64,000 nucleotides of DNA from positions 33,217 through 97,216 of the IMG/VR virus record IMGVR_UViG_3300045988_126669, one strand, 5' to 3'. Below, in pieces: positions 1 through 31,547 of the stretch. The number at the start of each line of letters is the position of its first letter. Within the stretch, counting starts at the first letter, position 1. Both the position numbers and the translations under genes were made by a program. The notes under the pieces are model-generated. The model made no database searches. It was given only the letters and a program-made list of their open reading frames with translations, and had not been told where the DNA came from. Source of the DNA: a virus.

Positions 1-2944
1 AGCATAAACTACTTTATGTTTAAATTCATCTAACTTTTTAAGAAAGTCGGTATCATATTGTCTTTGAGTCTTCATAATCCTCTACCGCCTTTCTTAAAGT
101 ATCAATGAATAAAGCATAAGTTTCATCTATAGTTTTTTGTAATTCTGCTACTTTTCTATTGTATTTTTTTATACAATCCTAAATATTATTTTGATTTACA
201 TTATAAAATGGATCATCGTTAGAGAAGTCAGGATTACTTTTATCTTGTTCTAATTCTTTAAAATCTTTTAAAGCTTTTTTAGCTCTTAACCAATTTTGCT
301 TTAATTGATAAATAGTCGTTGTAGTATAGGTCTACCCATTAAAAATTCTATAAGTAGTTTGATTATCATTTTCAAAAGAATAAACTACTTCTTGACGTTG
401 AACTGATAATTCGCATAAAACGCCTGGATCGATTTCAATAGAAGTAATATCAGTTAAGTCTTTAATCTAATATTCATTCTTCTAATCAATACCAATAATT
501 TGTTTATCATCTTCATTTATTCTAATATTACAAGCCCAATTCTTTTCACTAACTAATACGCCAGAATCATAAATTTCTTTCTTAGTATATCCATCAATAT
601 AGTAATCTTGTTCTTCAGTTTGACTTACTAAATAGATATGATAAATTAAGGTAGGATCAAAATCTACACGTTTAATTTCTACAGAATGATCTTTTTCTCC
701 TTCTTCTTCACTAATTGCTCTGCCGGGAGTAGTATAAAAATTAACTTTATTACTTGTATATAATTTCTATACATCACGCTTAGTAAAACGCAAGAAATAA
801 ATCTATGTTACTTTGTATTTAAAATCATCATTATAAAGATTTAAAATATTACCTTCAGTTCCATAATATTGCTCTAAAGGCAAATCCGCGACTTGAATAT
901 CATTAATAGTATCAAACTTACTTGCCTGCTTGCCATAATAAGAATATACAATAGTTCCTTGCTATAAGCCCACGTCAGATAATTCTACTACTTTAACACT
1001 ATAGATTGGAGCAACATGATCTATTAAATAAGCTCCTGTAATACCAATAACAATTTCTTCTCCATCAATGCTGAACTTATCTCCAGGAGCAAAACCTTCA
1101 AATCGAATCGTTATCGCAGGAGAATTAGCTAAAATATCTTTGGTCTATAAACTATAATGATCTCCGTCATAAAGTAATTCAAACATAGGATAAAAACTTA
1201 ATGTTTGTAATAAATTATCTAAACAAGTTTGTTTATTTGCTTGTAATTTATTAATTTCTACCTAAGTCAGATTTTCATCTTTCAAATTATCAATATAGGT
1301 ATTTACATCATTAATATACCCATTAATTTTATACCATCCATCAAAAGAAATACTATCCCATTTAAGAATTTCGCTCTCGGGCGGGTCCGCGTCAATAAAT
1401 CCATAAGTAGTAAGATTATCAAAACTAACTTTATCAATCTCATATGCAGTTCCACTAAATGTATGAAGCATACGTCCTAATTTATCTTCAGGGCTTAAAC
1501 TTACATTTAACAAACGCACAATAAAGTTTCCTTCTGTTGGAGATTTAAATAATTTAGGTTCTCCATCAGTTAAAAATTCTAAAGCCTTAGTTTTAAATTG
1601 ACGTTCTATATTAATATTATAGTTAGTTAAATCAGTTGATGTAAAATCTTTAATTTCATCATCGCCTAATTTACCTATAAATAAATGGTCTTCATCCATA
1701 AGGTAAGAAATTAAACCACTTATAGGAAATTCGTGATAATAAGTATTTCCATTCCTAAAAATATAAGGATATTGGCTTCCAATAGTATCAGTTTTACTTT
1801 CAAGGGTATTAATTTTAAAATTGCTTACTTTTGGATTAAATCTTATTTTTAATAACTATCCATTATTATATAAAAAACTATCTTCAAAAATACTATATAC
1901 AGTATTAGAAAAGATTTTATTACTGCGGACCGCAGTTTCGTCGCTATATTGCTGAACCGCATATTGATAACTAAACCCATGCTCGACAGTAAAATCTCTA
2001 TATAATTCTCTTGATGGAGTTTCACCAACTAATTTAAATTTTAATACTGTATTCCAAGTATTGAAATCATCTTCGCTACTGGCTCTTAATAAAGCAAAAG
2101 CCCCAGTAGCAGGAATTTCTAACCCTGTTTTTTTATCGCGGATTCCATTTAAATTAATTTTTACATATCCATTATTTTCATCCATAGTAGCGGAAAGGGT
2201 TGCTTGTAATTCTGGATTAATAGTTTCTCTATTAATGATTTGGTATCTAACACTCTCTGCTTCATAGTTATTAATAGTAGTTATAGAATATTGAATAAAA
2301 TAATTTTTATTTTTTTGTAATTCTTTATTTAATTCAAAACTATCATAACTTTCATTTAATTCCGTGTCATTAATTGAATTATGTAATTGCTCTCCACTAT
2401 CAGCAAAAATATTACCATTTTCATCATACACTTTAAATCTATATGAATAAACTTTTTCAGTAATATCATCATTTTTTTCTTTTTGGCTATATACTCCAAT
2501 AAAATTTGTTTTATTTATTCCTACTAAATTATCTTCAAAACCTTTTATATAAACTGCGGGCTTAGTCGTGCATTTAGCAATACCAACCGTAGAATAATAT
2601 CCAACTACTCCATTAGTATTAATATATGCTAACTGAATTTTGTAAGACTATCCTGGATTTAATTTATATTGAATAGGTTTTCCATTATTAGTAATTGATT
2701 TAAGATTTATATTAAAAGTAATAGAACCTTGTTCCAAACAACCGCGGACTTTGCTTGGAGTAAAATCCGCGGTTGTTCCCTAAGCAATTACGACATTGCT
2801 TGACACTGTTTTAATTATATAACATAATCCTGAAACTTCTACCATACTAACTGCACGATTCATTTGAAATGGAATAGTAATTTCCTATCCAACAAATGCT
2901 GGTAAAGTTCCAGATATAATAGGTGGATATAATTTATTAACCAT
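1..2944 (-). CDS. tail/baseplate structural protein, partial (>980 aa; continues past the window start); read with TAG=Gln
   Basis: ATG at 2942-2944 preceded by a GGAGGG RBS. Same-frame fragments 1856..2431 and 1262..1699 are joined by in-frame TAGs. It is the last gene of the tail module. Confidence 0.5.
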
Positions 2945-2945
2945 T

Positions 2946-3122
2946 TTATCCCTCCTAATTATTCTCGTTATTCTTCTCCTCTTGAAGATCTACTAATCTA
3001 TTTGTAAAATCTCTTAATTGTTTTAAACACTCTCCCATAAGAATAGTATCTTCTCCTTTAGTTGATACTAAAGAAAGAGTATTGTATAAAACTTTTAAAA
3101 AATTAATATCTTGTTCTTTCAT
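2946..3122 (-). CDS. small 58-aa protein (one in-frame TAG)
   Basis: ATG 3120-3122 with an AAAAGGAG RBS. The TAA stop overlaps the downstream ATG. Confidence 0.35.
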
Positions 3123-3144
3123 TTTCCTTTTTCTCCTTTTTAAT

Positions 3145-6100
3145 TTAACCTGTTATTTCTTTTCCATTGAGAGTCAATGAACCATTTATTACAACGGGAC
3201 CTTGTAAATAGATAGACCTATCAGTCACATTAAGATAATTACCAGTTCCTCCCATTAAGCCAATTGTGCCATTAAAAATAGTTAAATTGGGAGTAGAAGA
3301 ATATTCAACAGAAGGACCTAAATAAATATTACTACTATTTTTATAATTCAAAATTTTTGATAAATAACTTAAATCATCTACCGCACTCTATGCATTAGAC
3401 GCAGCATTGCTAGCTACTATAGAAATTGAAGCAGCTGTTTCCGCTACATCCGCGGCTGCATCTGCTGCCTATTGAGCTTTAGTAGCAGCAGCCCCCGCCG
3501 CACTAGCGGCACTTTTAGCTTCAGCAGCAGCGCTACCAATTGCATTTAATATATCACTTAATGATTTTTCTCCCGCTCCATACTAAATATACCAAGGCTA
3601 TCCCGTAGAACCATTATAATTAATTTTAATATTATCACTAAAAGTACCAGACTAAGCATAAATTTTACCATTTAATAAATCTAAACTTAACCCTGTTATT
3701 ACACTAGCTCCAGACTCATTATAAGTATATTCAAAATCTTTAGATTCTATAATACTTGAAGTTCCATTAATTATAATCTATCCTGTGCTAGATTTACCAA
3801 AAGTAGCAGTTCCGTCATCTTTTAAAGCATAAACTTGATATCCATTATTATATCCATAAACCCCAGTATTATAAGAAATACTTGAATCTGCATTTTGTTT
3901 TGTTCCAAAATCACCTATTAATACTCCGGTAAAAGTATTAGCATTTTTATCTTTTTTACCTGCAGCAATCTAAGCTACACCTAAAAAATTATTTTCTACA
4001 TCAGTATAAAATTTTCCATCCCATTTATTTACCATAGCAGATGGATATTTATTCTATAATACTAAAATAGGCTACGTCCAAACTATCTTATTTCCCTATT
4101 TTCCTTGGACTCCATAAACGCTTACTCCATCAACATAAAAACTCATAGGACTTAGTCTATACTCTTTTTTATCTTCATTATAATTAATCTTACCGATAAA
4201 AGCATCATTAGAATTACTAGAATAAATACTCCAAGTCGCAATTTCATCTACTTCGCCATTTACAAATAATTTATAAGGCTCTTTAGAAAATGTAGGTTCA
4301 CCATTACTTAAATAAATTACCTCTGTTGGACCATTTATATAAGTATTATCTAAAGTTGTAATAGGAACTGGATAGTAAGCAGTTAAATCATAGTCTCCCC
4401 AACCAGATAATTTTACCTACAAAATAATTAAATTACTCATTATAGAGTTTGTAGTATTAACTCTTAACACACAATTCTAATTATTAGTATTCTATAAATC
4501 AACATTATTAACCGTTGATCCAGCCATAAAACTCCAAGTCCAATTACATTTTTCAAAATTAGTAATTTCTTTACCTTCATTATCATATAACTAAGCTCTA
4601 AAAGTATAATTATCTCTTACTCCACTTTTTATAGCAGTAAATACTTTATTATTTAAATTCTCGTGAGCTATCATATCAATTACCAAAGTACAATCAGTGC
4701 CATTAGTTCCTACCTATCCAAAAGTGAAATCTTTAATGGAGGTATAAACAATACCATCTTTTTCTACTTTAGCAATTACGGTATTATTAGATTTATTACT
4801 ACTATAAAAAGTATTAATAGTATAATTTAAAGAAAATTCTCCAGGAGAAACATTGACGTTTTCATTAGTTAAATCAATAATAATTTCTTTATAAGTAGCA
4901 TCAGTTCCATCATCTTTAATACCAAAATTAAGCATAGTATTTTTAATAGGAATTTGCCAAATTACTCTCTAAGCTTCAACTAATTTACTTTCTCCATCCT
5001 AATTTTTACCAATTATACCATTATTAATAGCATAAGTCTTAGAATCAAAATGCAAAGTTAATTTACGACTAATCTTTCCATCTGATCTATTCATCAAATA
5101 ATTAGCCTAATTATAAATTAAATAATTACCATTAGTCTAATCTTCACAGTGAATAGACAAAGCATTTAAACTATCAATAGTCGCATCATTAGGAACTTGT
5201 TTTTCATTATTAAAAGTAATTATATTACTTCTATAAACTTTTCCATTATATAAAATAATTACTTTAACCTATTCTTGATTTTTATTAGAGCGCGGTTTTA
5301 GCTAATAATAAAAATTATTTTTATTATCTTCAATCGCAGTCCAATAGACACCAGAATATTCGTCCGCGGAAGGTGCTCCAAATTCATACGCATACCAGCG
5401 AACTTCAAATATATCTTCTTTTTTATGTTCAGTTATTTGAGTTCTATTGCCATCTTCATCAAAATGAACCCATTTCAATTTAATAGTTTTAGAATCAATC
5501 TAACCTTTATCATCAATTACATAAGTACTTCCATCTAATGAATACAGTCTTACATATTCATTTTCTATTTCATCTGCGGAAATACCTAATCCCATATATA
5601 TATCTTTTACAAAGATATTATTAGGCGGAATTGACATATTGAAATCATTGGCATAACTAATTAAATTATTATTACTATCTTTAAAATTATCTTTTTGATA
5701 TAAAAATATTTTTATATTATATATTTTAGCTACTGCGCTAGTATCAATAACAATTTCTTGAGAATAATATCCTTCAAAATTATAGGGATTGCCATACATG
5801 TCATTAGTATCTAAATCAATGGATGCGATTAAAGGGGTTTCTCCATTATTTTTGATACTTGCTTCTATTTTTTTAATATTATCCGCAGTATCATCTTTAA
5901 TACCATATATATTTATTTTTAATCCATAATTACCACTTATTACACCGAGTGTTTCAAGCCAGGCGCGGAAATCGGCACGCAGCCCCAACCGCGTAAATCC
6001 CTATTGCTCATCAGTAAAGGTAATTCCGCCATTTGGAGTAATCTCAATTTCCTCTTCATTACCATTAGCTAAGATACTCCAAATTTCTTTATTATTATCT

Positions 6101-6462
6101 TTGGCAATAAAAAAATTACCAGTTAAATCAATAAAAGTATTAAAAGGATTGACAAAATTATATGGTTTATTTTCATTTTTATCTGTCTTTTTACCGACAA
6201 TAAATTTAGTGCTATTATAGTCTCCTTCTGGAATCTATACATACACTTTATCGCCTTTGTTATAAGTGGTTATTTGGGAATAAGCATAAAATTCCGCATA
6301 AGATTCATTTTTGATCTTATACTTACCAATAAGTTTATCAGTCGCATCAATAATAGTACATTCAATGGTACTATCAAATTTAACTTTGTCAACACTTGAA
6401 TTAGCAATAATACTCATTGCTTGACATAAACTTTCTTGAATATTTAGTGCGTTATCAGCCAA
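3145..6462 (-). CDS. large tail fiber / distal tail protein (~1105 aa), TAG-recoded
   Basis: Track ORFs 6235..6462, 5500..5988, 4714..4935 and 3145..3351 all share one frame, bounded by in-frame TAGs that I checked at 4969 and 4714. TTG start with an AAGGAGGG RBS, and a TAA stop at 3145. Contains an Ala-rich collagen-like stretch near 3400-3550. Confidence 0.55.
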
Positions 6463-6576: not shown

Positions 6577-6577
6577 T

Positions 6578-15542: not shown

Positions 15543-15605
15543 AATTAGCCTCCTTTTACTCTTTATTATATTATACAAAAAATTTTTTATTTAGTCAAAA
15601 TTCAA

Positions 15606-16631
15606 TTATTTTTTATTAAATAATAATTCTTTAGTTAATTTTTCGCCATGATAACGGACTAATCCATCAATACTTTTCTAACTTAACTCTTTTACTTGAC
15701 TAATTCTTTTTTCTTTTTCTTCAATAGTAAAACGATTTATAAAATCAGCAAAACTCTATGGAGAGAACTATTTATCCTTTAAAATTTTTAACCACTTTAT
15801 TATAGTAGCATATTTCTATGGAGATCCGCCTTCACCTTTAACCGCATATTGAATCTTTCCCCCAGACACGTCTCCAATTAAAAATCCATTCATATTATCA
15901 GCATTAATTGCACCCATAGTAGGATCTAACATAAAATAATCAATATTTGTTTCAAGATCTGAATTAAATTTAATATTATTTATATAAAAAGATACAAATG
16001 CTTCATTAATAGGACCACGAGTAGACATTGTATATCCTTTCCACTAATTTTTATACCATAATATTCTCTTTTTATATTTATTATATCTTAATTCCACTTG
16101 CATTGCTGTATTCTATAGTCCTTTATTATCATCATCTGGCAAAGCATTTTTTAAATTTTCATAATGCTAATTCATATCATATTCTAATTTAGCATAATTA
16201 TAACCCTATACAGATGTTTTTTCAACTGCTTGAATATTTTTTATATCATTATCCATTAATCTAATCTCTCTTTGGCCTGTAATTGGATCAACATAAACAG
16301 CAGTAATTTTTATTTCTTGACTTAAAAACTCATTAATTAAATTCTATAAATTAAAAAATTCCTAATAGATTAATATTTTTTTCTATTCTAATAAATTTAA
16401 AGTCATAGTCATTGATTTATTTATTTTACTATTATGCTTTTTCTAAATATTATCAAAAATAGTAAAATGTTTAATTAATATTTCTGATGATTTTCTTATT
16501 TTTTCGTATAATTCTTTAAAATGTTCCTACTATAACTACTCTTTTACCATATCTTCAGTCCAATAAATAAAATCCTCAGCAATTTTCTAACTTTCTTGAC
16601 TATTATTACTATAATTATTTTTAATTACCAA
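15606..16631 (-). CDS. tail-associated protein (341 aa) with ~17 in-frame TAG codons (~5% of codons)
   Basis: TTG start after an AAAAGGAGG RBS. There is no TAA/TGA for 1 kb in 25%-GC DNA. It contains track ORF 15816..16028 and ends at TAA 15606. Confidence 0.5.
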
Positions 16632-17891: not shown

Positions 17892-18617
17892 TTAATGGAT
17901 ATTTTTCATCCAGTTATCCGGCTTATTATCAGGCTTCGCGCCCGCTAATCTAGACCGGATATCAATATCCCAATTAATATAAAGTTGATATCTTTCAACA
18001 AGGTCATAGAGTTGGAACATTGTTAAATCCATTAAATCCTGTAAAGACATTGAATCAAGACCTATAGTAAGCATTGAAAGATACTAACTAAATATACTAG
18101 CATTAGCCGTGCCGTTTAATTCAGCGACACGTTGTCTACCTCGCATTAATTTATCGGCTATCTTTTTCGCGGCCGCATTTCCAGGATTAAATCCCATTTC
18201 TTGCGAAGCATTAGATTTAAAACAAAATATTTCTTTAATATATTCCTATAATATATTAAAATTGCTTTCATCAATCATTATTTGTGGGTCACCTTGTAAA
18301 ACAATTGACCTAGGGGTAAATAAAATATTTTGCTTTGGAAACAATAATGTAAGAACCTACATAGATGCTTGTTTTTTATCGGCCATCTCTTTTTCTTTCA
18401 TCATTGTCATAAATATCTAAAAATTATTTGTTTCTCTTAAAAGACTTTCGCCCGAATTCTCTATTATGTTTTTATCAATACATAAACACTAAATCCCCAA
18501 GAAAAGATCTTTTTCACCTATAAAAGAAATTTCTTTTATAGATGGCTAATGAATAGTGACTTCTAATTCAGGTATTGGTAAATCAATACCTGTCATTAAA
18601 CCAAGTCTAATATCCAT
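17892..18617 (-). CDS. head-tail joining/connector-like protein (241 aa, ~7 TAG)
   Basis: ATG overlaps the upstream stop as TAATG. Continuous in frame through TAGs to TAA at 17892. Confidence 0.45.
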
Positions 18618-19198
18618 TATTCTTCAGTTCTTTTTTTAAAATCTTCTATAAATCTTTCCTCGTCATTAGGATTTGGCATAGATTTTTTATCTTCTTCACC
18701 ATGAACTGCCTGATACATAAGACATAAACCAGCATATTCATCAGTTAAAATAATTTGATTTGCCCCAAGAAATTCTAACTTACCGATACCAGTTAAATGT
18801 GTTTTATCTATCATACTGTCAATTTCTGCAGCGATACGATAAGGGCGCAATTGATAATCTTTTAAATGCCATTGATCAAAATGACAAATAATATCGAATT
18901 CAATAATATTATCTCTAAACTCAGGATTTCCACTTTGTGTAAAATTATCAAAATTAATAATTACATAATTTAATACACTTCCATCAACATAAAGTTTAGG
19001 AATTAATTTAATATTTTTATTAAATAATTGAATCATTTGTTCGTCATTTAAATCTGGCTTATCAATAGCATCTTTTGTTGTATAATATAATAAGCGCTTT
19101 AATCTCTCATTTTTGCAGAGATGTTTTACAATAATTTCTAAATCTTTTTCAACAGAAAGAAAACTTGATTTAGGTAAATTTACACCATTAATTTTCAT
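18617..19198 (-). CDS. head-tail module protein (193 aa)
   Basis: Intact ORF with an AAGGAG RBS and a TAA stop. Confidence 0.55.
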   Translation of the reverse strand: MKINGVNLPKSSFLSVEKDLEIIVKHLCKNERLKRLLYYTTKDAIDKPDLNDEQMIQLFNKNIKLIPKLYVDGSVLNYVIINFDNFTQSGNPEFRDNIIEFDIICHFDQWHLKDYQLRPYRIAAEIDSMIDKTHLTGIGKLEFLGANQIILTDEYAGLCLMYQAVHGEEDKKSMPNPNDEERFIEDFKKRTEE

Positions 19199-19213
19199 AA
19201 CACCTTTTACTCC

Positions 19214-20278
19214 TTAAAACAATGATTGAACTACAATCGTTTTCTTATGGTCTCCATAACATAAATCGAACTATCCGCTATATCCAGAAGCCCAACTTAT
19301 TTCAACTGTTGGCTTTTTTGCTTCTTTAATAACTTTTAAAGAAACCGGCAACTTTTTATTATTTTTTATTTCCCATTCTAAAATAGCTTTACCATCAAAA
19401 TAATAAGTATAAGTTTTCTTTGGAAAAATAAATGTTTCCCCTATAATATCAGTTGTCGTAGGATTTGGATCAATTGGTTCTGTAATTAAAGAACCAACAG
19501 TCTTATCGTCTAAATTGTCTTCCTACTCATTAGTATAATATTCAGTCGCATTGATTTCTAAAATGCCAGGCATACTTATAGAATCTACAGCTTCAACACG
19601 CCAACAAATTAAATTGTCTCCCTCATCCTAACTATCTAAATAAAATTTAGTATAACGTTTAAAATATCTTAATGTATCTTTATTTTTTGGCATTAAAATA
19701 TTTAATGAATAATTAGGATTATCTATACTAATTTCATGTTTCTGAATATAATTAATTTTCGTTTCTACAGGACCGCGAATTGCTGCATAAGTAGATTTCT
19801 TCTCTCCCTCATCTACCCAATTTATTTTATAAGAGCATTTTCTAATATCTCCTCTAAAATAAGCTAATTCAGTCAAATCCTAAAGATAACAAATCCAATA
19901 GGTATTAGTTCCACACCATTCAAAAATATCTCCCGGTTTAAACTAATATTTATTTCCAACAGACAAAATCTTGTCATCATAATCCTATTTTAATTTATTA
20001 GGATTAATCAAACACCTAATAGGTTTTTTATATTCCGCATCCTATTTAATGATTTCCGCGGCTTGGTATGAATTCCATACTGCTCTATCTAAACTTCTGC
20101 GCTTAGATAAAATCATACGCTCTTGTTGGCGGTTTCCGCCCATCTGACCGAGCCGAACCGCTGTATAATTAACGCCTTCAACAGGGCTACCTTCAAAGGG
20201 TGGTTTATCATAAATTCCTAAGCGACCTTGTTGTAATCTAAAAGGTTGCTTACTACTATAATCAAACCCTGATGCCAT
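19214..20278 (-). CDS. head-tail module protein (354 aa, several TAG)
   Basis: ATG 20276-20278 with an AGGAG RBS. It includes ORF 19628..19876 in the same frame. TAA at 19214. Confidence 0.45.
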
Positions 20279-20559
20279 AATTTATCTCCTATAAAAGACT
20301 AATCGTTTCAAATACAGTCTTACGATAAAAATTAAAATCAGTATCTTGATTCTACAATCCCTCAAGTTTGTTTAATAACTATAAATAAAGGGGTTCAGCG
20401 CTAAAAATCACACTAAACCCCACAATTTCATTTATAACAGTTTCTAGCTATTTATGCCAATCTTCATTATTTTCGCGCATTGGAATTAATTTCCATAATT
20501 GATTGGTTAAGCGCAAACAATTTACTTTTATACTCTCTATTGGAATATCAAAATTATAT

Positions 20560-21132
20560 TTAGTAATCATATCGACTTTTAAACACATCCCAATTAGATT
20601 CATATTCACCTTTATTATTTAAACGTCTACGTTTATATAAACGCTACATATGGTGAGATTGTCTTTGGCATTCACCTAATAAGTTTAATAACTTTGATAA
20701 ATGATTTGCCTAAGAAGTAAATTTAAAATCAGAGCCACTGTATTTCATTCGAGTGTTCTCAATTGAAGTGACTTGTCTTTGCGTCCAACCACACATCATT
20801 AAAATAGCTAAAATATTAATTTCTTCTTCAGTTAGATCACAATTAAAGCTGGATCTATCAACTAAAACTTGAGGTTCTTCACCCGGTTCTGGAAGTTCTC
20901 CCCATACTGTTCCTACAATAAAATCATCTGGCATAGCATCAGATTCGTTAATAGTAGCAACATCTAAATTATAATCTAAAAGATTTTTTCGCGGAAATTC
21001 AAATCCAGGAATAGCATCTATTATAAGATTCTATAAATCTCTTAGAGTATCTTCAGGAGTCAATTCCAGATACATATCATCAGTAACCTTGTTTAGAAAG
21101 CGATTATAAACAGTTGAGAATAATGTTCCCAC
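20560..21132 (-). CDS. head completion-like protein (190 aa, several TAG)
   Basis: GTG start after an AGGAGGG RBS. Contains ORF 20710..20934. TAA stop. Confidence 0.4.
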
Positions 21133-21151
21133 TTAATCGCCCTCCTATAAA

Positions 21152-21745
21152 TTATTTCTTGGAGGAAGTTTCCTCGGTTTTATTAATTACTTTATATCCA
21201 GAACCGCTTGTACGACGACCTTGAGTAATAGGTTCTTCTCTTACTACACGGCGCTTAGCAGCGGGTTCTTTCTCTACAATAGTATCTTCTTCTTTACTAG
21301 CGATATCATTAGCAATAGCTTTATCAACATCAAACCCAGTTTTTTCCTTCAAAGCTCTACGCTTATTAATATCAGTAATAGGAAGGCTAACAGATAGATT
21401 CTTGATTAAGTCAATAATTCCAATAGGAGCAAAATCAAGAGCATCTAAGAAAGCATCTAATGAGCCATTAAGAATTAAATCAGCAACTTGTTGCTCTGAC
21501 ATATTATATTCAGGTTCAGTATGAACATTAAGAGTATGAGTTACTTCTGGCTCTAAAATTTGTAAAAAATTAGCAATTAATTCGCGGCCGCCCGCCTGAT
21601 AAGTTAACTTCTCTAGCTCACCAAATGGAATGCGCTTAGTTTCACCGGGCGCAAATTCACGACGCAAATTAGTATCAGGAATAGTATAAACAACTACACT
21701 AGTGCTTCTATTTTTTACATTATAAATATCTTCATTATTAATCAT
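21152..21745 (-). CDS. hypothetical head protein (197 aa)
   Basis: Intact ORF with an AAAGGAG RBS and a TAA stop. Confidence 0.5.
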   Translation of the reverse strand: MINNEDIYNVKNRSTSVVVYTIPDTNLRREFAPGETKRIPFGELEKLTYQAGGRELIANFLQILEPEVTHTLNVHTEPEYNMSEQQVADLILNGSLDAFLDALDFAPIGIIDLIKNLSVSLPITDINKRRALKEKTGFDVDKAIANDIASKEEDTIVEKEPAAKRRVVREEPITQGRRTSGSGYKVINKTEETSSKK

Positions 21746-21831: not shown

Positions 21832-22938
21832 TTAGACAGTACCGTCAAGGCGACCATCATAAGTGATAACCTTACCAGTAACTCCATCATAATTCCAAGT
21901 ATACATCTGACCGAGAAGTGAAGTATCAACATAAGCACAGATGTTATTGGCAAGCATACAAACTACGCCAACCTTCTTGTAAACCTGAATCTCACGAGAA
22001 CGATCATAATTGTTGAATTCATCAACAATAGTGCCACCTTCGAAAGCAATCTTTACAGGCTTACCATCAGCGCCCGTAGGAATAACCCAAGCATAACCAG
22101 GATCAATAACCTTACGAGTATTGGTTTCATCTTCAAAGCCCTGCTCAAGAATAATAACCTTAGTACCCTTGTAAGTGGCAAGACGACCATTATTCCAAAG
22201 CTCGTTCTTCATAGCTTCAGTATATCTCCAAGCCTCATGAGGAATCATCTTAACAGCAAACTCATAAGTACAATAAATAGTAGGAGTACCATAAGCAGAA
22301 GCAATAGTGATCAAACGATCCATAGCAGCTTCATCAAATCCGGCAGCCGCAACGCGGTTAGCAGGAGGAAGCTGATTGATAGAAGATCTAAGAGCAGCAG
22401 CGACTTCTTTATAAATAAGTTCATCCATACCATCCATGATGATCTTGGTTACTTCACCAAAATCAACACGACCATCAAGGAATTCTTCGAAGCCAATCTG
22501 AGCAGCTCCGCCGATAGCGCTAGTGCGTACCTCGAAGGCTTCATTCTCTTTAGGTCCGAGCTTGAAGACTTCATAAATACCAGCAAGACCAACGCGAGTT
22601 ACAAACTGCTTAGCACGAGCACGATTATTAAGAGGACGGCGGAAAATAGGCTTATCACCCTGAGCGAAAGTCTTAACCTCAGCAAACTGATCATATTGCT
22701 GAATAACTTTCTTAGGAAGAACCTCATCAAGAGTCTGCTCAATCATAGAGAAAATAAGATTCTTATTTTCACGATAAAGAGCGTAAGTACCAGCCAACTC
22801 ATTCATTTCATTACGAAGAGTTTCATTTAAGGCTTCATAACTAAGATTTTTTCCCTCATAACTATAAGCAACAGGAGCAGAAGGATCAGCCTTAGCAACT
22901 TGCTTCATAAGAGCAATTAAATTATTTTTATCTAACAT
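21832..22938 (-). CDS. putative major capsid protein (HK97-fold-like, 368 aa, no TAG)
   Basis: Intact GC-richer ORF downstream of the scaffold-like gene. Size and position are typical of a major capsid protein. Confidence 0.55.
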   Translation of the reverse strand: MLDKNNLIALMKQVAKADPSAPVAYSYEGKNLSYEALNETLRNEMNELAGTYALYRENKNLIFSMIEQTLDEVLPKKVIQQYDQFAEVKTFAQGDKPIFRRPLNNRARAKQFVTRVGLAGIYEVFKLGPKENEAFEVRTSAIGGAAQIGFEEFLDGRVDFGEVTKIIMDGMDELIYKEVAAALRSSINQLPPANRVAAAGFDEAAMDRLITIASAYGTPTIYCTYEFAVKMIPHEAWRYTEAMKNELWNNGRLATYKGTKVIILEQGFEDETNTRKVIDPGYAWVIPTGADGKPVKIAFEGGTIVDEFNNYDRSREIQVYKKVGVVCMLANNICAYVDTSLLGQMYTWNYDGVTGKVITYDGRLDGTV

Positions 22939-22955
22939 TATCCTTTTCTCCTTTC

Positions 22956-23873
22956 TTACTTAATACGCATTACCTTGACGCCCTTTTGACCATCAGGCAT
23001 AGTATAAACTTTAACAACCTGCCAAGTCATTGAATCGTCGCCAGTTTTGCTAAGAATACCCTTTGTAGCAGCAGAAGGAGAAAGCTTATCTCCAACAGCA
23101 AGAGTCTCTTCATTAATCATATTAGTAGTATAAAGATCACCAATCATGGTCTTAAATACACGAGGAACCATAGAAGTGCCAGATTCCATGAACTTCTCAT
23201 GGTAGATACCCAACTTATGATATGGATCATTGGTCCAATTCATTTCATACATATCAGGAACATCAGTGAGAACCTTATCATAGTAATACTTTACAGGAAC
23301 ATTAGCAACCTGATGATTACTATCAAGAGTATATTCATTACCATCATAAGTAAATTTGCCGGTTTCATCGACATCATAAACACGACCAGCAATAGTAACA
23401 GTCTTTAAGCCCTGATCTGCGGAAACGGTCTGATTGATTAACTTATAAGTTTGACCCTTTTCATCAACGCCATTCCAGAAACGACCACCGTATTCAACCT
23501 CGGTATGCTCCCAATCATAAGGGCTATAAACACGAGCCTGATAGTCATCTTTAATCATAGCAAATTCGCAGTCCCACTGCTTACTGCCATCATAATGATC
23601 ACGATAAAGCTTAATCTCGTTATAAACGAGCATCCATTCACCTTCGCCAGTGAAGTTGACTTCGCCGATACCATTACCATTAGCAGCATAGTCATACTTT
23701 ACAAACTGACCGTTTTCAAGAATCTCAATGTCTTTATTGGCAGGAAGTTGAGCATAGATTTGAGCATTTCTTTGCGCGGAAAGGTGATTAGGCTCGACCT
23801 GACCGTAACCAAACTCAACATACTTTGCCTGAGACTTAATAGGAAGATTCTTATTCAAAAAGTCTTTAAACAT
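22956..23873 (-). CDS. capsid-associated/decoration-like protein (305 aa, no TAG)
   Basis: Intact ORF with a GGAGGACATACTAAATG start and high-expression codon usage. Confidence 0.5.
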   Translation of the reverse strand: MFKDFLNKNLPIKSQAKYVEFGYGQVEPNHLSAQRNAQIYAQLPANKDIEILENGQFVKYDYAANGNGIGEVNFTGEGEWMLVYNEIKLYRDHYDGSKQWDCEFAMIKDDYQARVYSPYDWEHTEVEYGGRFWNGVDEKGQTYKLINQTVSADQGLKTVTIAGRVYDVDETGKFTYDGNEYTLDSNHQVANVPVKYYYDKVLTDVPDMYEMNWTNDPYHKLGIYHEKFMESGTSMVPRVFKTMIGDLYTTNMINEETLAVGDKLSPSAATKGILSKTGDDSMTWQVVKVYTMPDGQKGVKVMRIK

Positions 23874-23890
23874 TTAGTATGTCCTCCTTA

Positions 23891-25474
23891 TTAATTTTTG
23901 TTGGCGGTAGCAAAAGCCGCCTTCACCCAAGCGGGCATATCATCATCTTCTGAACCATTATTGTTCAAATTAAAAGTAGTAGCACCATTGGGCTTATTAT
24001 TTTCGTCAAGGTCGAAACTCACCTTGTTGCGAACACAAATAACAGATAATTTAGCTTCAATATCATCAAGAGAATATTTATCAATATTTTCAACAACATC
24101 AGCTTTATCTTCATCAGAAAGCATATAGAATTTAGCAATCATATCTTCTTTATCTTTCTTCTCAGCAGCATTTTTAAATTCAGCAAGTGGAGCAATTTGC
24201 TCTTTCAAGCTATTATTTTCAGTTTCAAGAGCTGCAAATTTAGTCTGTAATTCATCATACTGAGCTTTAAGTTCAGTATATTCAACAACTTCTTCAAGAG
24301 AATAATTCTTCTTTTTCTTTTTATCATCATTCTCACTATTGTCGCCTTTATCAGACTTATTAGAGGGTTCCCCGTTATCAGGGTTCTTTTTATTATCATT
24401 GCCCTCTGATTTATTATCAGGGTTTTGGCCGTTAGATTTATTATTTTTGCCCTCTTCCTCAGCCTTTTTCTTTGAAGCATAATCAGTCTCAAAAGCTTCA
24501 ACATCAGCAAGAGCAAACTGAGGCTCTGTTGCCGGAGTATAAGACTTAGTTACTTCAGTTAAAGCGTCAGAAGGAACAAAGCCTTCTACATCGGTAAGAG
24601 AAAAGTCCATGCGATAATATTTTTGGTCTTGTCTATTTTGAAGAATAGCAAACTTTTGTCCCGCATCTTCATAAACGCCTTCAATGCGATAAATAGAACA
24701 ATAACTACTAGGCTCGCCAGGATATTTAGTCTCAACATAAGACCAGAGAGAATTCCACAAACTATCGCCAATTTCAACAGCATATTGTGTAAACACTTTG
24801 GGTCCTCCTTCTTTCATAAATTCTTTAAGTTCATTCATCATGGAGAACAAAGTGTTCTTAAAACCATCATCGAATGAAAAATTCACATTGATTTGGGAGC
24901 CTTCGAAACAAGGTTCATTTTCTTCTCCCAAAATACAAAGTTTAGAAATAATTGCCTTATTTATAATAAAAAACTAAGGCTTTCCATTACTATCTTTTGC
25001 CCACGTGGCATTTAATGTGTTTTTATCAAACTCCATAGACTAATTATTGCCTTTATCAACTACACGTTTACATTCAGGATACTAACCAGTCCATAAATAA
25101 CCCTCAGTCATTAAATACTCACGTTCGGCAACACCATCATCCAAAAATTTCTAAAACCAAACTTTAGCTCCAAGATCAACAAAACCATAAGGGCGAGTAT
25201 TATCTCTCATTCTAAATTCGCCATTAGATAATTCAATTATCCTATTATGTTCTTCAAAATCTTCGGTATTTTCATTAAAAAAACCAACAATAGGACTACC
25301 AGGAAGGCTATTAGCCATCTCAATTGCTACGTCTTTAGTAATTACGCTTTTATTGCGATTAGGTTTATCATCTACATAGCAAACCTTAATTTGGCATTTA
25401 GAAATTAAAGGATTTACAGGAGTTATATTTATAAACTCACAAGGTGTATTTAATTTAATACTTGTATGTTTCAT
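23891..25474 (-). CDS. scaffolding-like protein (527 aa) with a K/N/D-rich low-complexity linker and coiled coil; TAG-recoded
   Basis: GGAGGATTTATG start at 25474. I walked the frame through TAGs into track ORF 23891..24931. Confidence 0.5.
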
Positions 25475-25483
25475 AAATCCTCC

Positions 25484-27133
25484 TTATTTCATTGCTTCTT
25501 TATTTTGAATAGTTTTTTCACTTTTCTAATCGTCAGGTTTTTCCGGACGCCCTGCCTCACCATTAGAAGCTTTAGCAGTTCCAGAACCTGAGCTTCCTGA
25601 ATTATTTTGAGTTTTATTATTAGATGATGAACCTTTTAAACCCAAAATATCTTCACTACCCATAGTAGAACTCATAAGAGGAGGAATCATAATTTCACTT
25701 AAATGTAAAATCTCATTTTCAAAATGAGCTGCATTAAGAATAAAACTCTACGAATGTCCAAGAGCAATCTAAGACAATAACTTTGATTGTCCCATTTGCG
25801 CTTGTTCTTTATACATTTTAGAAAGTGTTTGATAATTATTCTAAGTAGTTTCTAATAAATAAAATCTAAAATTATATTTCTTATTACTACTCTTTTTTTC
25901 AATAATTCTATTAAAAAATATATTAAACTATAAAATTAAACTTCTTATTGTAGATTCATCATTTAATACTGATTTTTCTAAAGCCATATTACCATCAGTA
26001 TTAAATAAATTCTATGAAATACCTAATGAATTATAAACACTACGTTCAACTTTAGCTAAATCATCTGTCGTTGTAGTAGTATTCTTATCAGACATATCAA
26101 TAGAATCTACGTCAGTAAATGTAGTTAAAACATCTACTCCAATAGCCCTCTATAACATCTAAACGGCATTATTATGGATATCTCTGGCTTCATCGACATC
26201 AAATATCAAATCACCATTTTTATCCATTGGGAGCTTTTGGACTAAAATTTTAAGTAACTTCTACATTTGTTTCTTGCGGTCAAGATCTTGCGCCGCATCT
26301 AAATCCATAATAGTAGGAATCGAATTTACAAAAATAGGAACATCACTATTATTAATATTAAATTTAACACAATTTTCTGGTTCAAGAACATACCAACTAC
26401 CAGTATGCTAGCATCCAACTGCCTCTTCCAAAGCAAGTTTTCCTTGTTTATATAGAACATAACCTTTAGCAAATTCTTCTGGGAATAATTTTAATACTTT
26501 TAAACGATAATTCATATCTCTAAAAGTATCAAAAAATCGCATATCAAATTCAACAACTGGGGTATTATTTACACTATAACGTGTTCTACAATATCTAACT
26601 GGTAATTCTTGTAAAATTAGATTTTTCTCTGAAGGAACTATATATCCATAATAGCATCCATTTTTAACAACTTGTAAAGCAATATCTCCGCAAACCTTTT
26701 TAATATAGCTATTATCAAAATAATTCAACATTTTATAAAAATCTTTTAAAACTTTTTCTTCTTTTACATTGTCATCATAAGTTTCGGCTGCAATATACCA
26801 ATCATAACGATATAAAAAAGCAACATAATTACAAACTCGTTGATATACACCACTTATATCATAATAAAAATTAGAGATGTATCGCAAAGCATTTAGATCT
26901 CTTTCTGCGAGCGCGCGAAGCACATCAGGTTTCGTGATAATACGATTTTGACCTGGATATCTAATCTTACTATAATCACCAAGTTTTAAAATAGCGTCAT
27001 CTAAAGTTTTTGTGCCAACTTTTATTTTTCTATTGGCATAGTCCATGGTATCATTATAATTATATTCATAACGACCATTATAAATATCAAAACCTTTAGC
27101 ATGAATCTATTCATTACGATCTTGCGTATCCAA
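25484..27133 (-). CDS. portal protein (549 aa), TAG-recoded
   Basis: TTG start after an AAAGGAGG RBS. Contains ORF 26408..27046. Stop TAA 25484-86 checked. Its position after the terminase large subunit supports the call. Confidence 0.55.
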
Positions 27134-27146
27134 AGTTCCACCTCCT

Positions 27147-27503
27147 TTAATAACCTGCTAATTTCATTATATAATCATAAGAAATAAGGTTTTCGTCGGT
27201 ATATGGAATCTCTATTAATCTAAAATCATGTAAAGCGCAAAAACGTCTTTTTTGATTATCATTATATTGCTACTGGTATAAACCGCGCTTTCCACCAAAT
27301 TTAGAACTGGCTTCATAATGCTATTTTCCCTAATACTCAATAATGAAATCAATTTTTCCATCATCATCAAATATAACAAAATCAAAACGAAGCGGACGCC
27401 CGCTTGGGCTTTTTAAATCTGGAAAGATGTATTCCATTTTAAAAGGTAGTCCTGCTTCTTCTAAGATTTCTTCAATTTTAATTTCTCCTCTTGAAGCACG
27501 CAC
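27147..27503 (-). CDS. free-standing PD-(D/E)xK (DUF559/Vsr-like) endonuclease-like protein, 118 aa, between terminase and portal
   Basis: GTG after a GGAGGG RBS. The motif RFDFVIFDDDGKIDFIIEYQGKQHY parallels the C-terminal domain of the gene at 57055. Has 3 in-frame TAGs. Confidence 0.45.
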
Positions 27504-27515
27504 TTTCCACCCTCC

Positions 27516-29255
27516 TTAATTTAAAAAGCACCAATCAGACGCATTAAACTTTTTACGTTTTTTCTTTTTATCTTCTTCAAGTTTTAAATAATATAATCCA
27601 TATTCAAAAGCCGAAAATTTATCTTTACGAATTCCGCGATTTGCCTATTTTAAAATAATATTAATACCTTCATTTTCTTCGCGTAAATTCATCATTTCTT
27701 CTTTTAATATGGAGGTTAAAGTAAATGGTTTTAAATAATCTGCCCTTTGTTCAGGAGTCATTTTTGAACCTTTTTGAGTAGCTAATAATTTTTCTTTAGC
27801 TGTTCTCTCATCTATTAAGAATTTTACCTTACCCGCTTGTAATTGAGTCTGAGCATTAGCATGACATTCAGTATTTATTGGAGCATTTGCTTTAATAACA
27901 TACATAGCATCAAATTGAGTATTTGGTGTGCGATATTTTTTATAATATCCATCATCATCATTCTCAACACCAAAATCAGGTAAAAATTCACCATCTTCAT
28001 CATTTTGAGATTTTACCATATAATCCAAAAGTCCAATACCTAAACCATTACCATCTATAACCAAAGTTTTAGCTTTATATTTATAAAATAATTTCTTTAA
28101 TTTAATAGCCTGATCTTCAAAATGATCATCTGACATAGTATACATATTTACTAAAGACTTAATAGCTGGACCTTGGGCTTGTGGTGTTACTTTAAATACA
28201 CAAACTACTGAATCGCATCCTTTACGACCTACATCTACAGAAAGTACATAATAAGCTTGTGCGCCCGCCCGTCCAGAAGCTTCATACTCAGGCTATAATA
28301 ATTTTCTATTTCTATCAAAATGCTCTCCATTAAAGAAAGCATCCTCAACAGTTCCTGACCACTTAGATTCATATTCACGTTCGAATGAAGCTTCATTATA
28401 AGTTCCTTCATTCTTTTGGTCAGTAATAAATGTTTTACTTTGTAATCCTACTGCAACCGGAGTTCGCCATGTTCCGCCCAATACCATACAACGATCAGGC
28501 TAAGTTACCATACGAACCAAGAAACCAATAAGTCTATCATAAGGGAATGTGCCCTTATAACCAGCAGTAGTAATATAGATTTGTGATTTGTTTAATGGCT
28601 CTTGTTCATTGGTAGTGCCATCTTTAGCTCTACGAGAAATTGCCATAACAGGAATAATAACTTCACGAAGAATAGCATCATCAATACCGACACATTCTTC
28701 CATTAGTCCACCATGACGACGCTGACCACGAGTGCTTTCACGGGCTGCGAGGTTATCCAAAACTGAACCATTTTTAAACACATATCTAACTTTATCTTTT
28801 CCTTCAAGAGTTTTTCCTCGACTCCAATCAATTTCTCGATTAAAGCTTGGAATAAGTTCACATATTTCTTGAACTTTATCATGAAGAATACTAGCACCTT
28901 GCTCTTTACCTCCAGAAGTAACGAACAAATGTGCGCCAGGATATAAAATACATCTAATCATCAATGCCATAACAGACAAAAATGATTTAGAATAAGCACG
29001 AGGAAAAACCGCATAAACATACTAATAACGCATAACAGAACGGAGAAATACTCTCTAATAAAAATAAAAATTAAATTCTCCATCTTTTATTTCAGTGCGT
29101 CTTCCTCGCACCATAAAATCTACAAATAAATCAGGATATTCTCTCCAAAAGGCAACGTATTTGCGGATAGTGGGCATTACCGCTTCTACTCGCTCCGGTG
29201 ATAAACCTATTTTTCTACGGCTATCACTTAACTACAGTAAATCTTGTAATGCCAT
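27516..29255 (-). CDS. terL: terminase large subunit (579 aa), TAG-recoded
   Basis: The N-terminus reads MALQDLLQLSDSRRKIGLSPERVEAVMPTIRKYVAFWREYPDLFVDFMVRGRRTEIKDGEFNFYFYQRVFLRS... with TAG=Q. Has an ATPase core and a C-terminal nuclease motif LVIDGNGLGIGLLD. Fragments 28500..28979, 28293..28487 and 27645..28145 are joined by verified in-frame TAGs. TAA at 27516. Confidence 0.85.
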
Positions 29256-30442
29256 TATTTATCTAAACCCTATAAGAACTCATTATCTTGCGCAGATTCC
29301 TATTCTTTAAATTCCTCAAAATCTGCGTAATCACTATCTTTGATAGTTTTTTCAAGTTCTTCAATACTTAAATCAGCATCATCAACGATATCGCTTTCCG
29401 CGTTCTTTGCTTTCTCTTCATCTTCTTTAGCATTTTCACGCAAAGCTTTTTCTACCATTGTGCTAATATTAGTTTCATCTTCAATAAGAGTGCGAGTATA
29501 ACGTTGCATATCTTGAATAGTTAAATCCACTTTATCATGTGGCTATTCAACATAATATCTTTCAATATATCCTTCTTTTTCACACAATTCAATTAATTCA
29601 CCAATTGAATCAACAAATTCACCTGATTCTGCTTTATTTTGAGCAGCAGTAAATTTACCAGACTTCATTAAGCTATCGTATACTTTGCTCATCTTTTGGA
29701 AACCTTCAATATCACCAATATCGATCAATTGATTTGCCTTTAAAGATGTCTTACATATTAGTTTTAGCGTATCTTTATGTCCGGCGCCTTGAATATCATA
29801 AGAAGCCATCATTTCTTCATATAACTATTCAAGTTTAACCCATTCTTCAGGTTTATAAGTTTTGCCCCATTTAAGTCTTAAATAAGTGCGGTCTTCATCA
29901 GTTAAATCTAATTCTTGTTCCACTTCACCACTCTATTGTGCGAAATAATCTTCCGTAGGGGCATCAGGCGGTGGAGCATAAACCGGCTCTTTTAATTCTC
30001 CTTCTGGAATAGTAATAGAACTTTTTTCAATAGCAGTTGCAATCTATTGAGCATCATACCCTTGACGTTTCATAGTTTGCTCTAATTTATTATTTGCCAT
30101 CTACTGTAAAAATTCTGTATCTTTCCAACGATAATCTTTAAACTATTTGAGTTTCATTTTTGACAAATAACGTCCAAGAATTGTCATACCGGTCATAGAC
30201 TGCGGATCGCGTCCATATTTTTCCATTAATTTATTCCATTCATCTGGAACATAAGGAACATCCGCTTCTTGTAAAATCCATAAATAAGTATCTGGATTCC
30301 AATTATCGACGTGCATTGTCATACATTTTTTGCACATGGGGAATTTACCATCATTAGGATATTTTTCTAAATTATTAGATGAATAAAATTCCGTGCCATT
30401 CATTGTGCGATTACATTTTTCGCAATAATATGTTTCAGCCAT
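29255..30442 (-). CDS. hypothetical packaging-module protein (395 aa; N-terminal zinc ribbon; possible small terminase)
   Basis: ATG 30442 with an AAAGGAG RBS. Three track ORFs share the frame. The TAA stop overlaps the terL ATG as TAATG. Confidence 0.4.
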
Positions 30443-30491
30443 AAATAAAAAATTCTCCTTTCAATTATTTATTATAAACAAAAGGACAATA

Positions 30492-31547
30492 TTAAGATTT
30501 TTTGGCCTTAGAATTTCGACAACTTTTACAAATACTATAAAAGCCATCTTTACTTGTTTTATTTTTACTAAAATATTTATTATGAGCTAATTTTATTTTA
30601 CCACAACGACTACATTTTTTATATTTACCTTTTTCAACATTTAAATAATAATTATCTAAATATTCATCTTCCGCAGTCGAAGCAATTAATTTTGGAATTT
30701 TATTACGCCATAAACTTGAAATATATTCAAGACTATGTTTAATACCAAATTCCATTTGTATTTTCTCTTGAATGTCAATATTTTGTAAACCATCAATTTT
30801 ATATTCAACGATTCTATCATAAAGAGGGTAATTAGCTAAAGCTTTATCACAAAGCTTATCAAAATCCTCCATTAAATACCATAAGTCTTTATCGTATTCG
30901 CCCCAACTATCTTGCTTTAATCGGGAATAATTACATAAAACCGCAGAACATATTTCAGGTCTTAATAAACTAATTCCATCAGGAATGGGAAAACCATCAT
31001 CATCAAAAATAAATGTTTTATCATCTAATGGAATATAAGACTTTGATCTGGTTAATTTTGTAGGCACTATTGGACGACGATAAGCATTTTTCATAACATA
31101 CTAATCTTTACGCATTTCAATAAGAGCCTTTTTAATAACAAAAGCATCTTTGCCTTCTGTTACTTTTAATTTAGCCTCCCAAACATTAATGGCTTCTCTT
31201 AACTAATTTAAACTTGGTATCTCTTCTAAATCTTTTTTTGTAATTGTAATATGTGGTTGAAATATTGTATTTCTATTATCTGTAATTAAATTATAAATTC
31301 CATCTTCGCCATTTTCGAGTTGGGAAACAAGACCTTCAAAAGAAGTCTCACGCTTATTAACTGTAGCCATACGATTATCAGTTAATAATTTTTTCTCCTT
31401 TTTTTCTTGTTTCTCCATACAAAGAACCAAATAGTCTGCTAAAATTTCTAAATACTTTTCAGGCGGATCTGGATTATCAGCCAAAATTTGTTCGACTAAT
31501 TGATTTCTTTCTTCTGGAGTTTGTAAAGAATAATCAAGTTTTATCAT
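30492..31547 (-). CDS. hypothetical protein (351 aa) with a C-terminal CxxC...CxxC zinc ribbon; first gene of the leftward operon
   Basis: ORFs 31203..31547 and 30492..31094 are in frame across a verified TAG at 31203. Confidence 0.45.

Follow-up and report, generated by a model that had tools for sequence, protein, structure and literature searches.

The question raised by the left half of a 64,000-nucleotide (nt) stretch of viral DNA (positions 33,217 to 97,216 of IMG/VR record IMGVR_UViG_3300045988_126669; the whole stretch is hereafter the window) is whether its virion and packaging genes are broken, or are written in a code in which the amber triplet TAG stands for an amino acid and, if so, which amino acid, by means of which tRNA, and at what time in the infection. 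A sequence-only reading of the window had proposed that the whole operon is amber-recoded, with TAG most likely meaning glutamine (Gln, Q). The results presented here show that TAG is a sense codon, equivalent to CAA and CAG, in 14 of the 19 late genes. It is very probable, in our view, that the window covers roughly a third of the ~194-kb genome of an SPbeta-like tailed phage, whose host is of the Bacillota type, and that this phage uses code 15 (TAG = Gln) in a graded and time-dependent manner. The recoding is genuine here, but it is of a type that has been thoroughly described from other phages.

TAG as a sense codon in the late operon

With TAA and TGA as the only stop codons, 19 open reading frames (ORFs), g01 to g19, fill positions 53 to 31550 of the minus strand almost without gaps; measured from stop to stop, they contain 986, 1111, 2776, 193, 361, 332, 243, 198, 355 and 190 codons (g01-g10) and 198, 375, 305, 530, 559, 122, 580, 401 and 352 codons (g11-g19). 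From the chosen starts, these genes hold 187 in-frame TAG in 9982 codons and not a single in-frame TAA or TGA. The earlier observation that genes end on TAA or TGA was borne out, with TAA terminating 18 of the 19, TGA one (g01) and TAG none. The longest run free of TAA and TGA is 2776 codons, compared with a mean of 152 and a maximum of 211 in 50 shuffles. Re-calling the genes with a TAG-sense table, as had been suggested, raised the coding density of positions 1-31547 (greedy ORF tiling) from 0.485 in the standard code to 0.965. A TGA-sense code, run as a control, was rejected at a density of 0.494, no gain over the standard code, and a TAA-sense code was also rejected, as it merely inflated ORFs in all frames of this AT-rich DNA. 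The genes so defined are as follows (lengths in amino acids, aa; GC, G+C fraction; TerL, terminase large subunit).

53..31547, minus strand: late-gene half of the window, 19 genes (g01-g19), virion and packaging operon
53..2944, minus strand: g01, tail fibre-like protein, 963 aa, 13 TAG, ends on TGA; 96-99% identical in 18 IMG/VR contigs
3145..6417, minus strand: g02, tail protein, 1090 aa, 24 TAG (65% of its Gln codons); weak match to the tail protein of Enterococcus phage VRE9_4
6578..14884, minus strand: g03, tape-measure protein, 2768 aa, 84 TAG
15009..16631, minus strand: g04 (177 aa, 1 TAG) and g05 (341 aa, 16 TAG), in the position of tail-assembly chaperones
16884..17867, minus strand: g06, tail tube or major tail protein, 327 aa, no TAG, GC 0.38; phrog_2729
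17892..21745, minus strand: g07-g11, head-tail connector or neck region of 241 aa (6 TAG), 193 aa (0), 354 aa (7), 190 aa (3) and 197 aa (0); YomV_2nd and YomW Pfam matches
21832..22938, minus strand: g12, major capsid protein candidate, 368 aa, no TAG, GC 0.40, CAG preferred; phrog_4088, PF27364 YonB
22956..25474, minus strand: g13 (305 aa, 0 TAG) and g14 (527 aa, 4 TAG; YonD_N), head accessory or scaffold-like
25484..27046, minus strand: g15, portal protein, 520 aa, 10 TAG
27147..27437, minus strand: g16, homing-endonuclease-like ORF between portal and TerL, 3 TAG; phrog_9084, phrog_559
27516..29255, minus strand: g17, TerL, 579 aa, 6 TAG; phrog_2 and two other PHROGs
29255..30442, minus strand: g18, YonG-like, 395 aa, 8 TAG; phrog_3314, PF27269 YonG_N; TAATG overlap with TerL
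30492..31547, minus strand: g19, sigma-factor-like protein, 351 aa, 2 TAG (aa 115 and 149); phrog_5767 'sigma factor', 9e-55

Profile matches (PHROG, PF10145, TIGR01760) continue through the in-frame TAGs of these genes. The predicted TP901-type tape measure was recovered in g03, where PF10145 (2.3e-29, aa 193-400) and TIGR01760 tape_meas_TP901 (5.5e-32, aa 159-496) match across several TAGs; so was the portal (g15, phrog_2739, 2.9e-82 at aa 48-517). Likewise, the TerL N-terminus is restored and reads FYFY(TAG)RVFLRSVMRY(TAG)YVYAVFPRAYSKSF, and overlaps of the TAATG type, which had been noticed before, occur at g08/g07 and g18/g17. The number of fragments first counted per gene was too low (seven, four and three), as there are 84 TAGs in the tape-measure gene, 24 in the 3.3-kb tail gene and 6 in TerL. 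The claim that the whole operon is recoded holds for the 14 TAG-bearing genes among the 19, with TAG making up 37% of their Gln codons; it does not hold for g06, g08, g11, g12 and g13, which are free of TAG, and TAG is found beyond the operon as well, in endonuclease ORFs at 51832-53219 and 57055-57954 and in replication genes outside the window. A public collection of assemblies already calls these genes with TAG as sense (TerL 579 aa, tape measure 2768 aa).

That the TAGs are genuine nonsense mutations, in a prophage that is inactive or in decay or as an artefact of assembly, would account for the scattered ORFs of only 60-260 aa that the standard code leaves, but this explanation has practically no chance of being right, given that each of the 187 interruptions is TAG and none TAA or TGA, that no frameshift occurs across the 31-kb region, that profile matches cross the TAGs, that dozens of assemblies of 100-198 kb, independent of one another, show the g01-g19 architecture, and that a dedicated tRNA(CUA) is present.

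Glutamine and a phage-encoded suppressor tRNA

Homologues were sought in PHROGs, Pfam and NCBIfam and by tblastn against a phage collection, with Rfam used for RNAs and ARAGORN for tRNAs. To identify the amino acid, the late proteins, with TAG masked as X, were compared by tblastn with four standard-code relatives (Enterococcus phage VRE9_4, Geobacillus phage E3, Alicyclobacillus phage KKP_3916 and the fecal phage scaffold MT836163.1), column counts leaving out the poorly aligned tape-measure protein. None of the alignments contains an in-frame stop in a relative. Of 126 residues aligned to a TAG, 35 (28%) are Q, the same frequency as opposite true CAA or CAG codons (28%, n=327), and when TAG columns were scored against the substitution profiles of the 20 residues, Q ranked first, 53 log-likelihood units above E, which came second. 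MT836163.1 has Q at 45% of the TAG columns of the window, and the TAG at aa 67 of TerL is matched by Q in five of five relatives, the four above and phAss-1, a member of a related human-gut phage clade with the same gene order (the proposed Phassvirus; PMC10607447). The alignment check proposed earlier, and the assignment of TAG to Gln that it was meant to probe, thus came out in favor of Gln.

Codon exchange between strains points the same way. Where strains differ from the window at its TAG sites, they have CAG instead at 22 sites of g01-g03 (18 IMG/VR strains), CAA at 19 sites and another codon at 15; in g03-g19 (10 further strains) the alternative codon is CAA at 20, CAG at 10 and another at 15. 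In the reverse direction, TAGs of the latter 10 strains fall on CAA of the window at 21 sites, on CAG at 11 and on other codons at 6. The Gln content of the late proteins is 5.0% if TAG is counted as Gln and 3.2% if it is not. The reading of TAG as Gln is therefore supported by homologue columns and strain codon exchange, and by the predicted suppressor tRNA described below.

Could TAG encode another amino acid, such as Glu, Lys, Tyr, Trp or pyrrolysine? After Q, the residues seen most often at TAG columns are E, K and R, the two most distant homologues taken alone place S marginally above Q (by 2 log units), and ARAGORN names the CUA tRNA 'tRNA-Pyl'. This last point carries little, since 'Pyl' is the program's default name for a CUA anticodon and no pyl genes were seen. 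Against these observations stand the overall lead of Q and its equal frequency at TAG and true Gln columns, the preference of TAG for exchange with CAA or CAG within the species (71 of 101 variable sites in one direction) and the normal Gln content obtained when TAG is so counted, and we regard a different amino acid as highly improbable.

As the window itself holds no tRNA (nor any Rfam family at the gathering threshold), the search was extended into contigs of the same species, which are ~90-98% identical to the window or to each other where they overlap and from which all loci outside the window were read. No tRNA was found in ~75 kb to the left of the window or in ~10 kb to the right. Further right, after these ~10 kb of TAG-poor early genes and a strain-variable cassette, lies an array of 19-22 tRNAs, ~25-30 kb from the window. 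It includes a single tRNA(CUA) of 73 nt, located between tRNA-Val and tRNA-Tyr and identical in five of five strains, which scores 52 bits against the Rfam tRNA model and is 76% identical to a suppressor tRNA (tRNA-Sup) of phAss-1. In a positive control, the tRNAs annotated in phAss-1 were found again by ARAGORN. The authors of phAss-1 report that tRNAscan-SE typed their tRNA-Sup-CTA as Gln-decoding (PMC10607447). Comparison of the present tRNA(CUA) with the other tRNAs at hand, including tRNA-Gln of E. coli and B. subtilis, was uninformative, and only the phAss-1 suppressor stood out.

The 3' end of tRNA(CUA) is of particular interest. The gene does not encode CCA, and the 55 nt right after it match RF02682 (HDV-F-prausnitzii; HDV, hepatitis delta virus) with 27.7 bits and E 0.0055 in an 801-nt search, the P4 region being deleted; it is the only match of this type in the tRNA array. 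In contig L398 the tRNA ends at 16885 by ARAGORN and at 16884 by Rfam, and the match starts at 16886, so that its G1 abuts the tRNA 3' end. A P1 of 6 bp with a G1.U wobble, a P2 of 7 bp and a P3 of 3 bp can be drawn for it by hand, together with a P1.1 of CC/GG and with a cytosine in J4/2; P4 is lacking. We regard it as a candidate for a minimal HDV-like ribozyme of the theta type adjoining tRNA(CUA). Theta ribozymes are minimal HDV-like ribozymes that abut phage tRNAs, suppressor tRNAs making up one fifth of these tRNAs, and ~90% of the ribozymes published are predicted to have Bacteroidota hosts (PMC10879173). The candidate resembles them in the position of G1 right after the suppressor tRNA, in its lack of P4, in the missing CCA and in its occurrence in a recoded gut phage; it differs in an Rfam match below threshold and, from most of them, in a Bacillota-type host. 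Neither the candidate nor the tRNA sequences were found in the portion of the supplementary text of that study available to us. The suppressor tRNAs of phAss-1, in contrast, encode CCA and have no ribozyme behind them.

Other features of the array and its surroundings were noted. Its first member is a 71-nt tRNA-like gene (42.7 bits against Rfam tRNA; L398 5027-5097, L322 15222-15292, L330 15238-15308) for which ARAGORN gives a 2-nt anticodon and whose anticodon loop is apparently 6 nt long (AUUUAA or CUUCAA). A match resembling the twister-P1 ribozyme lies within the array (L398 9946-9996; 41.2 bits, E 2.6e-6), short of the gathering score of 67. The ~20 tRNAs as a group may serve the AT-rich codon usage of the late genes. 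The cassette between the early genes and the array (L319 11800-21428 compared with L322 11800-15200) carries radical-SAM/SPASM, radical-SAM-glycosyltransferase and YcaO genes in one variant and two Gly-rich proteins with ALK_LTK_GRD domains in the other.

The TAG gradient and a proposed timing of decoding

The right half of the window differs sharply from the late operon in its use of TAG. Its main features are these.

31572..31600, minus strand: perfect TTGACA-N17-TATAAT promoter, followed by GGAGG and the ATG of g19; kept in 10 of 10 strains
31683..50249, plus strand: early region with 37 near-consensus promoters and small ORFs without TAG as sense or stop, GC 0.40-0.45
51832..53219, minus strand: two TAG-bearing ORFs, one endonuclease-like (308 aa, 8 TAG) and one helix-turn-helix-like (150 aa, 3 TAG); phrog_1111 1.3e-5, phrog_15768 8e-9
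57055..57954, plus strand: HNH homing endonuclease, 299 aa, 4 TAG, phrog_374 2.6e-63; strain-specific insertion

The 37 early promoters deviate from TTGACA-N17-TATAAT at no more than one position, many of them carry a TG extension, and most are followed by a strong ribosome-binding site of the AAAGGAAAGGGG type and a small ORF; the whole 31-kb late region, by contrast, has six such promoter matches on both strands together. The 66 plus-strand ORFs right of 31.6 kb that are supported by a ribosome-binding site end on TAA (43) or TGA (23), never on TAG, and contain no internal TAG, so the early genes read identically in either code. Indeed, TAG terminates no gene in the window. Outside it, the late operon runs at least 25 kb further to the left with more tail and baseplate genes, holin-like genes and a 2581-aa protein with 28 TAG, all of them TAG-bearing. 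Left of the operon, on the other strand, lies a replication module (DNA polymerase III alpha, DnaB, NrdD/G, dUTPase, RuvC, primase, ligase and gyrase) with 0-6 TAG in each gene. Expressed per 1000 codons, TAG rises from 0-0.8 in early genes to 4-7 in replication genes and 9-19 in late genes.

The TAG-free genes of the late operon do not follow this trend. Four of them (g06, g11, g12 and g13) have a GC of 0.35-0.40 and the fifth, g08, one of 0.26; g12 and g13 (GC 0.39-0.40) prefer CAG, like the early genes. In the comparison of 10 strains, TAG is present in single strains within g12, g13 and g08, which thus avoid TAG yet can tolerate it. The absence of TAG from the genes of the most abundant virion proteins, capsid and tail tube, and their use of CAG, the codon preferred by the host, suggest that ordinary decoding works more efficiently than suppression. 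The phage offers a clear case, on the Bacillota side, of graded recoding, with no TAG in early genes, few in replication genes, many in late genes, and the most abundant virion proteins exempt.

The gradient also bears on whether decoding is supplied by the host, through a recoded genome or an amber suppressor of its own, in which case the phage tRNA(CUA) would be dispensable. In favor of this, no tRNA-Sup could be detected in some of the relatives that are TAG-recoded (BK032759, BK051641; PMC10607447). Yet the phage suppressor tRNA is 100% conserved in five of five strains, inside a promoter-driven phage array, and TAG is avoided by early genes within their frames as well as at their ends (0 of 66 stops), which is expected if they are translated while TAG still means stop. 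Furthermore, no bacterium is known in which TAG encodes Gln. Decoding by the host is thus very unlikely.

How, then, might the phage's own suppressor produce such a gradient? We propose that early genes and the tRNA array would be transcribed by the host RNA polymerase. Consensus promoters with AT-rich spacers precede segments of the array (L398 4956, 6039, 8008, 11632 and 14442), so this polymerase should be able to make the suppressor without any recoded protein. The adjoining theta-type ribozyme candidate would free the 3' end of the suppressor tRNA, to which host enzymes would add CCA and then Gln. Once accumulated, the suppressor tRNA would outcompete release factor 1 at UAG, and only then would full translation of the TAG-bearing replication, virion, tail and lysis genes become possible. 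A further level of control can be imagined for g19, which stands at the head of the late strand and whose promoter and two TAGs (aa 115 and 149) are kept in 10 of 10 strains. Because its promoter is of the host type but its reading frame holds two conserved TAGs, g19 may couple late transcription to the availability of the suppressor. Late expression would then be held by a two-key lock, one key being the ribozyme-cut suppressor tRNA and the other an early-transcribed g19 that needs this tRNA at both TAGs. We put this forward as a speculation that is unlikely to hold in full; if it did, translational recoding in a Bacillota phage would be a timer of late transcription, more than a filter on late proteins.

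Several points weigh against the scheme. We infer its timing, the competition with release factor 1 and the gating by g19 from sequence, and a standard-code host is assumed. The sigma label of g19 comes from PHROGs only, as a direct scan of g19 against Pfam and NCBIfam gave no match. The tRNA(CUA) has an unusual T-loop (AUCGACA) and a U1.C72 mismatch, lies outside the window and was seen in other strains, not on the window's own molecule; its predicted charging with Gln derives from homologue columns and not from an isotype model. The ribozyme candidate scores below the Rfam gathering score of 44, and its five copies are so nearly identical that no covariation signal is possible. Finally, no gene for a release factor, a tRNA synthetase or a CCA-adding enzyme was seen in the ~165 kb of the genome examined.

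Among the rivals to timed decoding by a phage suppressor, only one keeps appreciable weight, and it concerns the purpose of TAG decoding, not the decoding itself. TAG may have accumulated by neutral codon drift once the phage suppressor allowed it, for example from CAG under AT pressure, and have no timing or regulatory role. The GC of the late region (0.29), the near absence of CAG where TAG is common, the single transition that separates the two codons and the fast turnover of TAG sites between strains are all consistent with drift. Less easily explained in this way are the strictness of the gradient from early through replication to late genes, the fact that no early gene ends on TAG, the retention of both TAGs of g19 in all 10 strains, and a like pattern across unrelated recoded phages (10.1101/2021.08.26.457843). 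Drift without a regulatory role therefore seems to us somewhat unlikely.

With respect to Gln codons in general, the two halves of the window are also split in that early genes use CAG about twice as often as CAA, and late genes CAA ~5.6 times as often as CAG. The GC of the window is 0.29-0.31 at 1-32 kb, rising to 0.37 at 20-24 kb, and 0.33-0.45 at 32-64 kb.

The virion module, its relatives and minor features

Annotation in the standard code would split the terminase, portal, tape-measure and tail genes of this prevalent gut phage into dozens of fragments; once code 15 is recognized, a clean SPbeta-like virion module is recovered. Precomputed Pfam matches on identical genes in public contigs (YonG_N, YonD_N, YonB, YomW, YomV_2nd, YomU_Tube and PhageMin_Tail) place Yon/Yom structural families in a conserved order, which marks the module as SPbeta-like. 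This order runs from the sigma-like gene through YonG-like, TerL, homing endonuclease, portal, YonD-like, g13, capsid, connectors, tail tube and two small genes to the tape measure and tail proteins, and it matches that of Enterococcus phage VRE9_4/EF1, Geobacillus phage E3, Alicyclobacillus phage KKP_3916 and phAss-1. The tail tube assignment of g06 comes from PF27173 YomU_Tube on the identical gene in public contigs and from homologues annotated as major tail or tail tube protein, and that of the capsid candidate from homologues labelled major capsid protein in several Bacillus phage records. Judged by gene order, g04 and g05 are presumably tail-assembly chaperones; g18 is possibly the small terminase or a packaging partner. 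PHROGs, which picked out TerL, the portal, a virion structural protein, homing endonucleases and the sigma-like protein, and the precomputed Pfam matches were needed, since direct scans of Pfam and NCBIfam with TerL, portal and capsid candidate gave no match; searches of PDB sequences with the capsid and tail tube candidates gave none either. The homing-endonuclease-like g16 occupies the same position as the homing endonuclease of VRE9_4, and two of its TAGs are also TAG in phAss-1.

Contigs of the same species reach 190-198 kb in public and IMG/VR collections, and the left and right ends of the walk do not overlap, from which we take the genome to be ~194 kb; for the same reasons a circular genome of 127 kb was rejected. 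The exact 368-aa sequence of the capsid candidate was found in 1068 blocks of a public assembly collection, among which 404 blocks include contigs of 50-200 kb, and counts of this one sequence suggest a phage that is very widespread in sequenced samples.

Recoding of late genes from TAG to Gln with phage suppressor tRNAs is established in crAss-like phages (PMC7886860), where code 15 has been proven by proteomics (PMC9523058). Recoding of late and lytic genes has been surveyed broadly across phage lineages (bioRxiv 10.1101/2021.08.26.457843), annotation tools for recoded phages exist (PMC11210395), and the NCBI taxonomy has a 'Caudoviricetes code 15 clade'. The present phage shares with the code-15 gut phages the concentration of TAG in structural, packaging and lysis genes, early genes that fit the standard code, a phage-encoded tRNA(CUA), a jump in coding density with TAG as sense and the alignment of TAG with Gln. 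It differs from crAss-like phages, which are Crassvirales of Bacteroidota, in being a ~194-kb SPbeta-like siphovirus of a Bacillota-type host, and from other code-15 phages in its TAG-free capsid and tail tube genes. The current understanding of phage recoding is not altered by these results, which add a well-resolved case and a testable idea about a TAG-bearing sigma-like gene.

The relationship to phAss-1 is closer. Like phAss-1 and the wider EF1-related clade, the phage has the order TerL, homing endonuclease, portal, capsid and tape measure; both it and phAss-1 come from the human gut and read TAG as Gln in TerL, portal, tape measure and tail fibre, with some TAG positions and a similar tRNA-Sup(CUA) in common. 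By tblastn, TerL is 60% identical to that of MT836163.1, 47% to that of VRE9_4, 44.7% to that of phAss-1 and ~33% to those of SPbeta-like Bacillus phages. Unlike the present phage, phAss-1 has a genome of 136 kb, a GC of 0.445, two to three tRNA-Sup instead of one and an unusual 1666-aa capsid protein in place of the 368-aa YonB-type candidate, the two capsids being 50% identical. A nucleotide search (megablast) of the phage collection with positions 21000-31600 of the window gave no match, to phAss-1 or otherwise. Given this, the TerL identity, the difference in genome size and the different capsid protein, membership in the proposed genus Phassvirus was rejected, and phAss-1 is a relative at the level of the clade only.

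The closest relative in the phage collection is MT836163.1 (L005), an unannotated 12-kb fecal phage scaffold that matches the region from g19 to g08 in identical order, with 35-63% amino acid identity overall and 58% in the capsid. Unlike the window, it is written in the standard code: across 3889 aligned positions, no stop falls in frame. Since it has Q at nearly half of the TAG columns, the clade must have changed its code, apparently recently, or have reverted such a change, and a standard-code relative with so similar a TerL could help in dating it.

Outside the late operon, no genes are richer in TAG than the homing endonucleases. In strain L006, ~310 nt stand in place of positions 57057-58278 of the window, which hold the HNH insertion. 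In the replication module, the genes for DNA polymerase III alpha and DnaB are split by TAG-rich GIY-YIG/HNH endonuclease ORFs (L068 37-5530, L095 9362-10639, L185 7910-10477), which are probably introns or inteins.

The early half of the window has further repeated elements. A second class of promoter, with an AT-rich spacer (TTGAyTTTTTATAAAAAATAATATATAAT), is present in at least six copies at 50081-62737. Another recurring module joins a consensus promoter to a GC-rich hairpin of 30 nt, placed at about +1, with a folding free energy of -16 to -24 kcal/mol (36418-36490, 38630-38728, 40614-40690, 42891-42984, 45195-45290, 47737-47832 and 49943-50015); it had no match in Rfam. On the 3' side of the hairpin is either a T-run or a perfect convergent minus-strand promoter (38700-38728, 42956-42984, 45262-45290 and 47804-47832); in the convergent modules, the two strands would give complementary hairpin transcripts of ~35-45 nt. 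Finally, direct repeats of 226 and 300 nt with 71-77% identity (45124-46091 compared with 47666-48764) point to a duplicated early gene cassette, in which the minus-strand 'ORFs' look like antisense artefacts.

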